Below are positions 1-28,492 of a DNA stretch of 32,000 bases, piece after piece. The notes under the pieces are model-generated. The model worked only from the letters and a program-made list of their open reading frames with translations. It made no database searches and had not been told where the DNA came from. Origin of the DNA: Candidatus Baldrarchaeota archaeon. Lineage in GTDB: Archaea; Asgardarchaeota; Baldrarchaeia; Baldrarchaeales; DXJG01. The stretch spans positions 207,454 to 239,453 of the forward strand of contig DXJG01000009.1 in assembly GCA_019056805.1 (NCBI GenBank), in the 5' to 3' direction. The position numbers were made by a program, and so were the translations under genes. How positions within the stretch are numbered: position 1 is the stretch's first letter; every line of letters begins with the position of its first letter.

Positions 1-389
1 TTCTCACCAATAGCTTCTTTATAACCCTTAAAATTAACAATAATAATTGGCAAATCTATTTTCATCATACCAAATCACCATACCGCCCATTATACATTAC
101 GCTATAACATGCTCAATCAATATAAGTTTACTCGAAAATACAAGCATTGGTACATTGCAACTTAACAATATCAAATTTTGCAATTCTTTTGCAATTCGTA
201 ATTCGAATATTTTTTGTTTCAACTGTAAAAAACAGAATATACCAAAATTATATTCAGAAATATCAAATTAGCATTATTTTACTAATACAAGATTATCTAA
301 AAGGTAACGCGTATAAAATTCGTGAAGATAACTTTTTAAAATTCTAAAACATTTGAATCACACAAAAAATATAGATAGGAGAGGAGAAA

Positions 390-1578
390 ATGACACAAAA
401 AACAACAGTTTCAATAATAAAGGCAGACATAGGTTCACTAGCAGGACACCATGTAGTACATCCAGAACTAATTGAACTTGCCAAAAAGGAACTCGAACAC
501 GCCAAAAAAGAAGGAATCATAAAAGACTACTACGTATTTAACTGTGGAGACGACCTACAACTACTAATGACGCACGACAAAGGAGAAGGAAATTCACAAG
601 TCCACGAACTTGCATGGAACACATTCAAAAAAGCAGCAGAAAAAGCAAGAGAAATGAAACTCTACGGCGCAGGGCAAGACTTACTAAAAGAAGCATTCTC
701 AGGAAACATACGAGGCATGGGACCAGGAGTAGCAGAACTAGAATTCGAAGAAAGAAAATCAGACCCAATCCTAGTATTCGCAGCAGATAAAACAGAACCA
801 GGAGCATTCAACCTACCACTATTCAAAGTATTCGCAGACCCCTTCAACACCCCAGGACTCGTAATAGACCCAAACATGCACGGACCAGACCTAGAACACA
901 CAGGATTCAAATTCAAAATACTTGACGTAATAGAAGGAAGAAGCGTAGTCTTAAAAGCACCAGAAGAAATCTACGACATTCTCGCATTAATAGGTACAAC
1001 AGGGCACTATGTAATCGAAAAAATATGGAGATACGACGATCTACCAGCAGCATCAGTATCCATAACAAGACTAAGCTTGATAGCAGGAAAATATGTGGGC
1101 AAACTAGCAGCTATAATGGCTGCTAGGCCTAAAGATGACCCAGTTGCTATCGTACGTGCGCAACACGGTCTTCCAGCCGTAGGCGAAGTACTCGAAGCTT
1201 TTTCATTTCCACACGCCGTCGCAGGTTGGATGCGTGGTAGCCACTACGGGCCCCTAATGCCTGTAGGATTAAAAGATGCTCGATGCACCAGATTCGACGG
1301 CCCCCCAAGAATCGTATGTCTAGGATTCCAAGTATGCAATGGCCATCTAATTGGTCCTTCAGATATGTTTGACGATCCAGCATTTGACAGAACCAGAATG
1401 CTTGCCAACGAAATTGCCGAATATTTCAGAAGACATGGACTCTTCATGCCCCACAGACTCGGTCCAGATGGGAGAAGAACAATAACAGAATTAAACATGT
1501 TCTTCTCCCAGGACTCACGAAATGGAATATACAACGCTACCTCAGGTGCTAGAGAAACTCAGAGAACGATTCAAGTAA
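390..1578 (+). CDS. fbp: Bifunctional fructose-1,6-bisphosphate aldolase/phosphatase (class V FBPase), interrupted by two introns: join(390..1102,1133..1467,1517..1578), 369 aa spliced
   Basis: Family motifs KADIGS, GDD, YGAGQDLL, DKTEPGAFN, GWMRGSH and RFDGPP are present. The raw 404-aa ORF has a 10-aa insert in YVGK/DDP and an aberrant C-terminus. The conserved tail EMEYTTLPQVLEKLRERFK* lies in another frame (1519-1578). Removing both introns gives 1110 nt = 370 codons. SD GGAGAGGAG lies upstream. Confidence 0.95.
1103..1132 (+). other. Putative BHB-type mRNA intron 1 (30 nt, in frame)
   Basis: Central helix GGGC(1097-1100)/GCCT(1127-1130), bulges AAA(1101-1103) and AAA(1131-1133), intron stem CTAGCAGC(1104-1111)/GCTGCTAG(1119-1126). 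Excision restores GGC AAA GAT GAC (G-K-D-D). The exon-side helix is weak, so this is a relaxed BHB. Confidence 0.88.
1468..1516 (+). other. Putative BHB-type mRNA intron 2 (49 nt, frameshifting)
   Basis: Exon helix TCG(1459-1461)/CGA(1518-1520), central helix GTCC(1462-1465)/GGAC(1511-1514), bulges AGA(1466-1468) and TCA(1515-1517), perfect 13-bp stem TGGGAGAAGAACA(1469-1481)/TGTTCTTCTCCCA(1498-1510). Cutting after the 2nd nt of each bulge yields CCA GAC GAA ATG GAA TAT (P-D-E-M-E-Y). Confidence 0.93.
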
Positions 1579-13353: not shown

Positions 13354-13963
13354 TATATCTGATACACTCCGAATAGGTTTCTTTGTCCAAAATATTTCGC
13401 TTATATAAGTATTCTATCAATTCTGTTATTTGCAAAATGTTATGTAGTCTAACACCTATTTTACTCAAATTTTTTGATCCGCCCTGTTCTCTATCAAGGA
13501 AAACAACTACATCTTCCACAATTCCGCCCTGTTCTCTAATATTCTTAACGGACTTAACTATGCTTCCTCCAGTTGTTATTAAATCATCGATAATAACCAC
13601 TTTATTACCCTGTTCTAAAATTCCCTCGACCATCTTCTCTCTACCATGAGCTTTTTGTTCTTTTCTAACATAGATTAATGGTAAACCGAGTTTATGGCTT
13701 ACAAGAGTGGCAAATGGAAGACCTGCGGTTGGAACGCCTGCAATACGATGAACTTCGGTTATTTCATTCTTAATCAACTTAACGTACATATCGCACACTT
13801 CATTAAACAAGTTGGGAAAACTTGGTATAAGCCTCATATCTATATAAAATGGGCTTTTCTTCCCAGAAGTCAATGTAAAACTCCCAAAACTAATTGCATT
13901 AGTTTCTACCAGTATCTCACAAGCTCTAAGCTTAAGCCTATTCTTAATATCATTCCAGTTCAT
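13331..13963 (-). CDS. pyrE: Orotate phosphoribosyltransferase
   Basis: FTLTSGKKSPFYIDMR, YVRKEQKAHG and the PRPP motif VIIDDLITTGGS. Confidence 0.93.
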   Translation of the reverse strand: MNWNDIKNRLKLRACEILVETNAISFGSFTLTSGKKSPFYIDMRLIPSFPNLFNEVCDMYVKLIKNEITEVHRIAGVPTAGLPFATLVSHKLGLPLIYVRKEQKAHGREKMVEGILEQGNKVVIIDDLITTGGSIVKSVKNIREQGGIVEDVVVFLDREQGGSKNLSKIGVRLHNILQITELIEYLYKRNILDKETYSECIRYINEEKET

Positions 13964-14666
13964 CAATAACTCCCCTCTTATATTCAAATACCTCAAAGAT
14001 TTCTAAAGATTGCCCCCTTAAATTTCTTCCAAACAACTTTTCCACAAAAATCTCAAGACTCGTACGAGAATCCGTATGATAAGGAATAGCGACCCTAGGC
14101 ATACTCAACTCTGCAATTTTAACACCACTTTCATAAGAAGCCTGAGGAGCTAAACCAACAGTACAAAAAACAATATCCAAATCAAAATTTTTACCAATAT
14201 TCTTCATTTCAGGAAATGGCAAACTATCACTAGTATGAAAAACTGTAATTCCATTATTAAAACAAATTATATACGAAACAGGTTCAATAGACACATGATT
14301 AGACTTTTCCACAAAAATCTCAACACCATCAATTTCTACTTCTGAACGCGGAGAAACCGCTATTAAATAATCTTTAGGAACACAATCACTTAACTTTTTA
14401 ACAACATGATGTGGCGCTACAATCTTAGATTTAAAAATAGCTCTAATTCTGCTAATAAGCAAGGGATTAAAATGCCCAGGATGCTCATGAGTAATTAATA
14501 CAGCATCAGCTTGCTTAAAATCAGTTGCATCAACACCAACAGGATCAACAACAACAGTTGACTTTTTAGACCGCAAAATTACTCCACTACGCTTATTAAT
14601 CCACGAAACTAAAACAGCATCGTCATCAGGCATAATTTCAAATATCGGCGAGACCATACTAACCAT
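13950..14666 (-). CDS. Metallo-beta-lactamase-fold hydrolase
   Basis: VVVDP, LITHEHPGH, FHTSDS and IPYH motifs. ATG 14666 follows a GGTGG SD. Confidence 0.8.
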   Translation of the reverse strand: MVSMVSPIFEIMPDDDAVLVSWINKRSGVILRSKKSTVVVDPVGVDATDFKQADAVLITHEHPGHFNPLLISRIRAIFKSKIVAPHHVVKKLSDCVPKDYLIAVSPRSEVEIDGVEIFVEKSNHVSIEPVSYIICFNNGITVFHTSDSLPFPEMKNIGKNFDLDIVFCTVGLAPQASYESGVKIAELSMPRVAIPYHTDSRTSLEIFVEKLFGRNLRGQSLEIFEVFEYKRGVIDELE

Positions 14667-16492: not shown

Positions 16493-17620
16493 ATGAAAGA
16501 AGTAGTATGTAAAATATGTGGGAAAAAGAGTGTTTTAATTTCTGAGAGTATCGGCGTATGCGGCAATTGTATTAGGGAAAAACCTGAGGACGCCTTACCT
16601 TATGCATTGAAAACTCACGAGGAAAGTAGAAAAAGATTTAATTTACCTCCACAACCACCAAAAGATAAAAACGGAAAGAAATGCGGTCTATGTGTAAACG
16701 ATTGCAGAATACCCGAAGGTGGAAAAGGATACTGCGGCTTAGTGATAAATAAAGATGGAAAACTAATAAGATTAGCAGGAACACCCCAAAAAGGATTATT
16801 AGACTGGTATTATGACCCATTGCCCACAAATTGTGTAGCTTATTTCGTCTGTCCAGGATGTGTAGGCACAGGATATCCAAAATACGCTTACAAAGCAGGT
16901 CCAGAACACGGATACTCAAATTTAGCCGTTTTTTACGGGTCGTGTAGTTTTGATTGCTTGTTTTGCCAGAATTGGACGTATAGAGAACTTTCATCACGTT
17001 TAAAACCGCTTATCACTGCCGAAGAATTAGCAAGTAAGGTACACCGTAGAGTTTCATGCATATGTTATTTTGGAGGGGATCCTTCACCTCAGATGCCTCA
17101 CGCATTAATGACCTCAAAGTTAGCTATAGAAAAGGCTAAAGAATGGAATGGAATTATGAGAATCTGTTGGGAAAGCAACGGTTCAATGAATTGGAACTTA
17201 TTAAAACAAGCAGCAAAATTGTCATTGGAATCAGGAGGATGTATAAAATTCGACCTTAAAGCGTGGTCAGAACCGCTAAACATTGCTTTAACGGGAGTAA
17301 CAAATCGACAAACCCTAGAAAACTTCAAAAAACTAGGTAAATACATAGAGAAAAGACCAGATCCCCCCTTCCTAGTAGCAAGCACATTATTAATACCAGG
17401 CTATATTGATGAAGAGGAAGTAAGACAAATTGCAAGCTTCATAGCAGATATAGACCTCAACATACCTTATGCACTCTTAGCATTTTACCCACAATATTAC
17501 ATGACAGATTTGCCAACAACGAGCAGAAAGCATGCTGAAAGATGTCTAGAGGCAGCAAAAAAAGAAGGATTAACAAGAGTAAGAATAGGGAATGTTCACT
17601 TACTTTCAAATGCGTATTGA
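16493..17620 (+). CDS. Radical SAM protein (PFL-activating-enzyme-like) with N-terminal Cys-rich domain
   Basis: CSFDCLFCQN (CX3CX2C), FGGDP, ESNG and KFDLK motifs, plus extra CxxC pairs. Confidence 0.9.
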   Translation: MKEVVCKICGKKSVLISESIGVCGNCIREKPEDALPYALKTHEESRKRFNLPPQPPKDKNGKKCGLCVNDCRIPEGGKGYCGLVINKDGKLIRLAGTPQKGLLDWYYDPLPTNCVAYFVCPGCVGTGYPKYAYKAGPEHGYSNLAVFYGSCSFDCLFCQNWTYRELSSRLKPLITAEELASKVHRRVSCICYFGGDPSPQMPHALMTSKLAIEKAKEWNGIMRICWESNGSMNWNLLKQAAKLSLESGGCIKFDLKAWSEPLNIALTGVTNRQTLENFKKLGKYIEKRPDPPFLVASTLLIPGYIDEEEVRQIASFIADIDLNIPYALLAFYPQYYMTDLPTTSRKHAERCLEAAKKEGLTRVRIGNVHLLSNAY

Positions 17621-27271: not shown

Positions 27272-28492
27272 ATGACTAACGAGGGGGAGCACGGAACAAC
27301 AATGTTTGGCAGTGTTCTTTCACAAACACTCCTTGCGCTTTCATTCGATACACTAGATTTAGCAGCAGGATTCATTGCCGCACTAGTATCCTCATATGTT
27401 GTCAAAATGCCTTGGATTCTAATAATATACCCCCCTCTTCTTACAGTACGCGGAAACATAAGTGGAATGTTTTCAGGAAGATTAACTACAGGACTTCACT
27501 CAGGTCTTATAATGCCTAACATTAGAAAAAATACAGAATACTTTTACAGTCTTCGTGCAAGCATTTTCCTCATGAGCTTCATAAATTCAATAATTGTAGG
27601 ATTTCTCACATATGGTATTTCCCTGATATTTGAACCCATTGGCAGTATATCACTTCCACTTTTAATTTCCATAGCAATACTATCCATGATGCTTCCAACA
27701 GTCATTTCAATATTTTTCCTAGCTCCTTCAATTGCTATACTCTCATATAAAAAGGGAATAGACCCAGATATTATCGTATACCCAATATTATCAACCTTAA
27801 ACGACATAATTGTATCCGCAATCTACGTATCAATTATAGCAATGATCATCTTCTGGAAGAACATCTTCATAATGCTCTCCTATATTTTAATTCCTCTCTT
27901 CGCCGTTCTTGCCACATATTTTCTAAAATATCGAACCGATAAAAATTTTAGAAAAACTATTTCCGAAGGAATGATTATCATAATAATTTTACTAATTGTT
28001 AGCAATTTTACCGGAGGAATACTTTCCAAACTAAGATATCAAATAGAACGGTATCCACATATTCTTGCAATTTATCCCTGCCTTCTCAGTATGATAGGAG
28101 ATGAAGGATCAATTATTGCCTCCACAACAACCACAAGGCTAAGCCTTGGAAACATAAAACCATCCCTAAGAGATATAGGAAATTACGAGAGCAGAATGCA
28201 CATTTTTGGAGTATTGCTGGCTGGATTTATCGTAGCTACAAGTTTTGCAACAGTAGGAACACTAATCTACATCGTCTCATTAATAGGAATTTTTCAAACA
28301 ATTCTAATCGCATTACTAACAAATCTAATCCTTGTACTCCCGATAATCTTCATATCCTTTGGATCAGCAATTATCACCTTCAAACGTGGATTAAATCCTG
28401 ACAACTTTACCATACCAATAATTACATCCTCATCAGACTTCTTAACCACAACAAGTCTTTTCATAGTCATTAGCGTACTCATGAGCCTTTAA
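27272..28492 (+). CDS. MgtE/SLC41-like divalent cation transporter (duplicated membrane domain)
   Basis: Two repeats (RGNISG...GIDPDII...D and GDEGS...GLNPDNF...D), many TM helices. Confidence 0.85.
   Translation: MTNEGEHGTTMFGSVLSQTLLALSFDTLDLAAGFIAALVSSYVVKMPWILIIYPPLLTVRGNISGMFSGRLTTGLHSGLIMPNIRKNTEYFYSLRASIFLMSFINSIIVGFLTYGISLIFEPIGSISLPLLISIAILSMMLPTVISIFFLAPSIAILSYKKGIDPDIIVYPILSTLNDIIVSAIYVSIIAMIIFWKNIFIMLSYILIPLFAVLATYFLKYRTDKNFRKTISEGMIIIIILLIVSNFTGGILSKLRYQIERYPHILAIYPCLLSMIGDEGSIIASTTTTRLSLGNIKPSLRDIGNYESRMHIFGVLLAGFIVATSFATVGTLIYIVSLIGIFQTILIALLTNLILVLPIIFISFGSAIITFKRGLNPDNFTIPIITSSSDFLTTTSLFIVISVLMSL

Follow-up and report, generated by a model that had tools for sequence, protein, structure and literature searches.

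A probable in-frame bulge-helix-bulge intron in the catalytic motif of fbp from a Baldrarchaeia-like Asgard archaeon

The fbp locus

The 32,000-nucleotide stretch of DNA analysed here (the window), part of contig DXJG01000009.1 of a Baldrarchaeia-like Asgard archaeon, carries at 390-1578 on the forward strand the gene fbp for fructose-1,6-bisphosphate (FBP) aldolase/phosphatase (PF01950). We read fbp as three exons (390-1102, 1133-1467, and 1517-1578) separated by two introns of the bulge-helix-bulge (BHB) type, both on the forward strand: intron 1 (1103-1132), which is 30 nt long, in frame, and stop-free, and intron 2 (1468-1516), which is 49 nt long and shifts the frame. Intron 1 falls within the catalytic motif, and we think it likely, judging from the sequence, that it is a genuine pre-mRNA intron in the fbp coding sequence, spliced by the endonuclease EndA and the ligase RtcB.

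Read literally, without splicing, the fbp open reading frame (ORF) extends from 390 to 1604 and matches PF01950 with an E value of 8e-164, covering profile positions 1-342 of 361, so that the match ends early. Spliced translation with both introns removed gives a product of 369 amino acid residues with the C-terminus ...GPDEMEYTTLPQVLEKLRERFK*, and only this doubly spliced form combines a full-length PF01950 match with a contiguous Y-x-G-K-D-D motif, having both YVGKDDP and the EMEYTTLP tail. The Sulfolobus tokodaii enzyme ST0318 (PDB 3r1m) aligns with the fbp protein throughout, apart from ten extra residues between Gly231/Lys232 and Asp233, and after excision YVGK-DDP aligns to Tyr229, Lys232, Asp233, and Asp234 of ST0318. 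We take Lys232 to be the residue that forms the Schiff base, and Asp233 and Asp234 to be Mg2+ ligands, on the strength of the structures published in Nature in 2011 together with the 3r1m alignment.

The closest named homolog of the fbp protein, at 80% identity, comes from a metagenome-assembled genome labeled 'Candidatus Baldrarchaeia', and the genome that contains the window (G000; 1.92 Mb, 35.5% G+C) has many interrupted tRNA genes and a single copy of fbp. The ratio of nonsynonymous to synonymous divergence (dN/dS) for fbp is 0.03 between this genome and a second carrier of intron 1, L035, at dS 0.39, and 0.03-0.04 in comparisons with congeners that lack the intron. We conclude that fbp is functional and under strong purifying selection in the carriers.

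Structure of intron 1

As RNA, positions 1097-1133 read GGGC AAA CUAGCAGCUA UAA UGGCUGCUAG GCCU AAA, and fall into i) the exonic 5′ strand of helix H (GGGC, 1097-1100), which pairs with 1127-1130 in all five carriers of the intron; ii) a 5′ bulge (AAA, 1101-1103) that is invariant among those carriers and has its predicted cut at 1102/1103; iii) an inner helix h′ of 10 bp with a 3-nt loop (1104-1126 in all), in which 1104-1113 pair with 1117-1126 through eight Watson-Crick pairs, a U.G, and an A-U, the UAA loop lying at 1114-1116; iv) the intronic 3′ strand of helix H (GCCT in the DNA, 1127-1130); and v) a 3′ bulge (AAA, or AGA in carrier L091; 1131-1133) with a predicted cut at 1132/1133. Helix H thus consists of 4 bp (G.U, G-C, G-C, and C-G), and the order of the strands is that of an archaeal BHB, running outer region, H, bulge, inner helix on the 5′ side and inner helix, H, bulge, outer region on the 3′ side. 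If each bulge is cut after its second base, exactly 1103-1132 is lost and GGC AAA GAT (G-K-D) remains, restoring YVGK-DDP, although placements of the intron from 1101-1130 to 1104-1133 are equivalent because AAA is found on both flanks. The motif as a whole is relaxed (HBh′-like), with an inner helix of 10 bp and an outer helix h of one U.G pair.

Refolding of a 71-nt context with RNAfold gave -27.0 kcal/mol (z = -3.3), a stability reached by 2 of 200 shuffled sequences, and a structure in which the 5′ AAA bulges out and the 10-bp hairpin lies stacked on the exon-intron helix. When random genomic 4-mers are placed beside the given hairpin, a 4-bp helix H in exact BHB register arises in 1.5% of cases, and one with at least three G-C pairs, as in intron 1, in 0.04%. 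An earlier note on this DNA, made from its letters and reading frames, had proposed a 30-nt BHB-like intron between the catalytic Lys and Asp, built on a perfect 8-bp hairpin extendable to 10 bp, closed by GGGC/GCCT and two AAA bulges; the coordinates and structure it gave proved correct, the refolded hairpin agrees with its description, and the BHB geometry, the empty sites in relatives, and the conservation of the stem all fit its proposal.

Distribution and divergence of intron 1

Intron 1 is found, always with a length of 30 nt, in five lineages: the genome of the window and L035, L093, L088, and L091, the last four identified among the members of a 90% protein cluster. Non-carriers have no counterpart of exactly this segment, and four congeners (G001, G003, L036, and L037) as well as an outgroup genus (G004) align to it with a clean 30-nt gap. 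GKDDP is contiguous in 27 of 29 fbp loci of related genomes, two species of the same genus among them, and Y[VIL]GKDDP in 119 of the 120 nearest homolog clusters; the YVGK-DDP that the earlier note expected from excision is therefore the sequence seen in intron-less congeners and in nearly all of these clusters.

Fourfold-site divergence among the five carrier lineages reaches 33-38%. Positions of the lower stem and of the 3′ strand of H vary at 2 of 20 sites, as against 47% of fourfold-degenerate sites in the five carriers (binomial P = 5e-4), while all three bases of the loop vary. Helix H is paired in 100% of alignment cells and the inner helix in 96%; the G.U of H has become G-C in L093, and pair 9 of the inner helix is U.G in the genome of the window, U-A in L035 and L093, and C-G in L088 and L091. 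Of the three bases in the 3′ bulge, the last is A throughout, but the middle one may be A or G (AAA or AGA). With AGA, as in L091, a Lys codon results when the cut is made after the second or third base of the bulge and not elsewhere, which agrees with the canonical cut. The pattern in these five sequences points to constraint on pairing rather than on sequence in intron 1, and only an RNA structure accounts for the exon-intron helix and the compensatory changes.

In a tree of the exons the four non-carriers group together (support 83/97). The tree does not resolve a carrier clade, although an approximately unbiased test does not reject one (p = 0.295); the outgroup branch is long. This leaves two histories for intron 1: a single gain in the ancestor of the carriers, or an older gain followed by one precise loss. 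A recent gain confined to the window's genome and L035, which we also considered, was overturned by the carriers L088 and L091. We were unable to find other copies of either intron by blastn-short against the 1.92-Mb genome, and a pattern scan of 185,579 species genomes returned no match to the exact intron hairpin; with the loop left free, the matches were due to chance and lay in unrelated genomes, mostly of bacteria. No donor for the intron was found in the genome or in the species-genome scans.

Intron 2

Intron 2 (1468-1516; fold z = -5.3) is a canonical hBHBh′ motif, with helix H formed by GUCC/GGAC, bulges AGA and UCA, an outer helix UCG/CGA, and an inner helix of 13 bp. Its removal restores the C-terminus of the family, GPDEMEYTTLPQVLEKLRERFK*. 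All nine congeners have the intron, with differing loops, lengths of 49, 37, 43, and 34 nt, and sense-strand G.U pairs at several positions of the stems; it is missing from the neighboring genus (G004). Substitutions in exon 3 fall mostly in third codon positions of the spliced frame and are mostly synonymous. Since intron 2 shifts the frame ahead of a conserved C-terminus, the fbp mRNA must undergo BHB splicing whatever the nature of intron 1.

The lengths of intron 2 show a regularity of their own. In the window, L035, L093, L088, L091, L036, L037, L026, and L029 they are 49, 49, 49, 37, 37, 37, 43, 34, and 37 nt, respectively, all 1 modulo 3, so that loop insertions and deletions come in multiples of three, a pattern with a chance of about 1-4% given three to four independent lengths. 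A spliced intron would need no such constraint, and the regularity might hint that unspliced mRNA is translated with one frame disfavored.

Splicing enzymes

Two EndA paralogs are encoded in the genome, on contig C9 at 197884-198387 and 13779-14261. One, the alpha subunit of 184 aa, matches its catalytic counterpart in Aeropyrum pernix EndA (3p1z_B) with E 1e-44, keeps the Tyr/His/Lys residues, and has a loop that aligns to the Crenarchaea-specific loop (CSL), in which a Lys lines up with APE Lys44; the other (beta, 178 aa) lacks the catalytic His. The CSL confers on EndA the ability to cleave relaxed motifs (PMC3241643). RtcB is also encoded (608 bits). By sequence, then, the genome encodes an alpha/beta EndA predicted to be of the type that tolerates relaxed motifs, together with the RNA ligase RtcB. 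The earlier note had recognized that the weak exon-side helix of intron 1 would call for an endonuclease tolerant of relaxed BHB motifs, and had suggested determining the EndA subunit type; the outer helix is indeed one U.G pair, and the alpha/beta composition, with its CSL-like loop and the Lys within it, is what this requirement would lead one to look for.

Other BHB introns in the genome

Intron 1 does not stand alone in the genome. We scanned for G+C-rich BHB motifs, which gave 155 hits in the real sequence versus 66 in shuffled sequence, and then searched the exon pieces against Pfam. Two frameshifting introns emerged, one of 31 nt in pcm (contig C17, 48219-48256, forward strand) and one of 35 nt in porG (contig C6, 49467-49508, forward strand); when the exon pieces were searched separately, the Pfam coordinates proved contiguous across the junction (PCMT 3-59 then 61-208, and POR 1-32 then 33-173). 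A third case, in aIF5B (contig C10, 39157-39196, forward strand; 257-296 of locus L039), is an insert of 33 nt that keeps the frame and includes a TAG stop in that frame; it splits the G2 motif between REAGGI and TQHIGA and has a helix H of GGCA/UGCC, bulges UAA and AAA, an inner helix of 10 bp, and an outer helix of 3 bp; the exon pieces on both sides match GTP_EFTU. In all three genes, excision by the rule used for intron 1 makes Pfam coordinates contiguous or restores a conserved motif.

The bulges are NNA/NNA in every verified intron and in the tRNA-Trp intron of this genome, which is 30 nt long, just as they are in intron 1. The outer helix is only 1 bp in the pcm, porG, and tRNA-Trp introns, so that a weak helix on the exon side, as in intron 1, is normal in this organism.

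Some further candidates came to light. One in a glyA-like gene (C6, 44185-44219) gave no Pfam match on its short exon pieces and is unconfirmed. Short G+C-rich hairpins with a 4-bp helix and NNA/NNA bulges lie on C17 at 241573-241608 (forward strand) and, on the reverse strand, on C9 at 38683-38717, C13 at 27885-27916, C2 at 16754-16797, and C17 at 283072-283105, the last of these being a candidate 27-nt in-frame intron within a long ORF. A search of the genome for open frames joined across a BHB insert proved too noisy to use, as displaced controls gave equal numbers and many hits were ordinary gene boundaries.

Proposed splicing of the fbp mRNA

An insert between the Schiff-base Lys and the metal-binding Asp residues of a functional gene is more likely to be removed from the mRNA than to be borne by a working enzyme. 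We propose that in the pre-mRNA the exonic GGGC would pair with the intronic GCCU, the 10-bp hairpin stacking on this helix so as to leave two 3-nt bulges; that alpha/beta EndA would cut after the second base of each bulge; that RtcB would join the exons, regenerating ...GGC AAA GAT... (YVGK-DDP) and releasing the 30-nt intron, probably as a circle; and that intron 2 would be removed likewise, so that the normal 369-aa enzyme would be made only from doubly spliced mRNA. The unspliced isoform would presumably be inactive. At the protein level, the peptide YVGKDDPVAIVR, or DDPVAIVR following YVGK, would speak for the spliced form, and LAAIMAARPKDDPVAIVR for a translated insert.

Several observations weigh against this interpretation. 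The contiguous exon-exon (outer) helix of intron 1 is a single U.G wobble pair, and a distal 8-bp exon-exon helix (1080-1087 with 1140-1150), which we considered as a substitute, does not survive the synonymous changes seen in L088 and L091. Covariation measures, with five sequences only, do not exceed those of column shuffles; third codon positions within the insert vary at approximately the neutral rate (counted on the carrier alignment, relative to the 47% given above); and the pattern of variation would formally be compatible also with conservation of a peptide LAA..AARP. Exact spliced-junction patterns for introns 1 and 2 were absent from JGI metagenome contigs, and we infer cleavage and ligation in vivo from features of the DNA.

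The arms of intron 1 (1104-1113 and 1117-1126) resemble the distal exon-exon helix just mentioned (here 1080-1087 and 1143-1150), sharing the words TAGCAG and TGCTA, with a joint chance of about 1.3% by shuffling. The likeness could be fortuitous, or it could mean that the intron arose locally.

How much of the above could be accounted for without splicing of intron 1? The 30 nt could instead be a translated in-frame insertion, forming a tolerated 10-residue loop between Lys and Asp-Asp, with the hairpin and BHB shape as by-products of insertion. All five variants of the insert keep the frame and lack stop codons; translated, they read LAAIMAARPK, LAAIIAARPK, LAAALAARPK, or LAAKKAARPR, with the same amino acids LAA and AARP at the flanks; third codon positions vary at roughly the neutral rate; and a short loop can in principle exit and re-enter at adjacent residues. 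Yet a translated loop would leave unexplained the 4-bp exon-intron helix in exact register, whose chance occurrence was estimated above, as well as the NNA bulges and the changes from G.U to G-C and from U-A to C-G; it would part the Schiff-base Lys from the Mg-binding Asp residues, to go by the 3r1m alignment and by the 2011 structures, at a site that is contiguous in all but one of the 120 nearest homolog clusters; and it would offer no protein-level logic for the radical changes at the center of the insert (IM, II, AL, and KK) or for the K to R change beside Asp-Asp in L091. Furthermore, the genome demonstrably needs BHB splicing of other mRNAs. Taking both sides together, we regard translation of the insert as quite unlikely.

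Two other explanations fare worse. That fbp is a decaying pseudogene and the insert neutral junk would be suggested by the literal reading, with its altered catalytic motif and frameshifted C-terminus, but is highly improbable given the low dN/dS both between carriers and against non-carriers, the mostly synonymous changes of exon 3 in the spliced frame, the conserved intron stems, and the single-copy status of the gene. An assembly or chimera artefact, for which we found no support, is scarcely credible: contigs from four other sequencing runs, belonging to four studies, span the insert with 0 differences and 0 gaps, and variants of it occur in four further lineages from other samples. EndA/RtcB splicing of intron 1 is accordingly the explanation that we favor among those weighed here.

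An fbp mRNA left unspliced or half-spliced would still encode a full-length subunit, altered at the Schiff-base loop, since intron 1 keeps the frame and has no stop; retention of intron 2 would change the C-terminal region shortly ahead of the conserved EMEY motif. One could imagine that EndA activity sets the ratio of active to altered subunits of this oligomeric enzyme, amounting to control of gluconeogenesis at the level of splicing, and that this Asgard lineage has a genome-wide, evolving set of mRNA introns, gained and precisely lost, that depend on the tRNA-splicing machinery; we consider this reading as a whole rather unlikely.

Comparison with known introns and insertions

A BHB intron in the pre-mRNA of cbf5 is known from Crenarchaeota, including Aeropyrum, Sulfolobus, and Desulfurococcales (Watanabe 2002; Yokobori 2009, PMC2738675), and was described in 2020 as the only case reported in a coding sequence (PMC7714728). 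In the literature we searched, archaeal coding-sequence BHB introns are restricted to crenarchaeal cbf5, with an additional case in a 5′ untranslated region (UTR) in Haloferax. The fbp and cbf5 introns are alike in that a short BHB element interrupts a coding sequence, the motif is often relaxed, there is a link with hetero-oligomeric EndA, and occurrence is patchy among relatives. They differ in that fbp is a gene of central metabolism (PF01950, and so not of the cbf5 type) in an Asgard, Baldrarchaeia-like host, and in that fbp has two introns, the first of which is in frame and stop-free and leaves an ORF that looks intact. A gene of central metabolism with two such introns in an Asgard-type archaeon would thus add to what had been a single gene, cbf5, in the literature searched.

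Noncanonical BHB introns of tRNA genes are cut by an (alpha-beta)2 EndA with the CSL (PMC3241643), and a preprint describes Asgard tRNA genes as rich in introns, with mRNA introns going unmentioned there (bioRxiv 10.64898/2026.10.13.758758). The fbp introns share with these tRNA introns the 4-bp helix, the 3-nt bulges, the size range, and the predicted enzymes, but reside in an mRNA, which has no tRNA body to aid recognition. The intron in the 5′-UTR of Haloferax volcanii HVO_1309 (PMC7714728) likewise presents an mRNA as an EndA substrate, although it sits in an untranslated leader, whereas the fbp introns are in coding sequence.

Two further parallels can be drawn. In HAC1/XBP1 mRNA splicing, cleavage by Ire1 is followed by joining by tRNA ligase or RtcB, with a regulated frameshift as the outcome; the resemblance to fbp lies in a small coding-sequence intron handled by an endonuclease and a tRNA-type ligase without a spliceosome, and the difference in the nuclease and its recognition motif as well as in the regulated frameshift. 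Rickettsia palindromic elements are in-frame, translated, multicopy palindromic insertions, and the fbp insert resembles them as a palindrome placed in a conserved gene without disrupting its reading frame, but it is single-copy in its genome, and so unlike a multicopy element, and has BHB geometry together with its exon.

Gene callers translate intron 1 as coding sequence, since it preserves the frame and contains no stop codon. Public gene calls at NCBI, JGI, ENA, and Logan (P0123, which is the window's own, P0001, P0124, P0125, P0002, and P0003) translate through both introns, giving products of 379-420 aa that end in a spurious tail and, for the carriers, also include ten active-site residues that do not belong there. 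The earlier note had warned that ORF-based annotation would not see an in-frame intron, and these public records, with ten extra residues in those of the carriers, bear it out; stealth introns of this kind would escape every ORF-based survey. Four features are particular to fbp: an ORF that looks intact, an intron inside a catalytic motif, a strict and a relaxed intron in one mRNA, and filled as well as empty sites among close relatives. The third would make a single transcript a simple pair of substrates for the specificity of Asgard EndA, and the fourth would make gain or precise loss of an intron in an archaeal protein gene directly testable.

Neighboring gene

Upstream of fbp, on the reverse strand at window positions 1-66, lies the 5′ end of a gene for triosephosphate isomerase (MMKIDLPIIIVNFKGYKEAIGE...), divergent from fbp and separated from it by an A+T-rich spacer of approximately 320 bp. 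The same divergent arrangement of triosephosphate isomerase and fbp is found in L035, L037, and L088.
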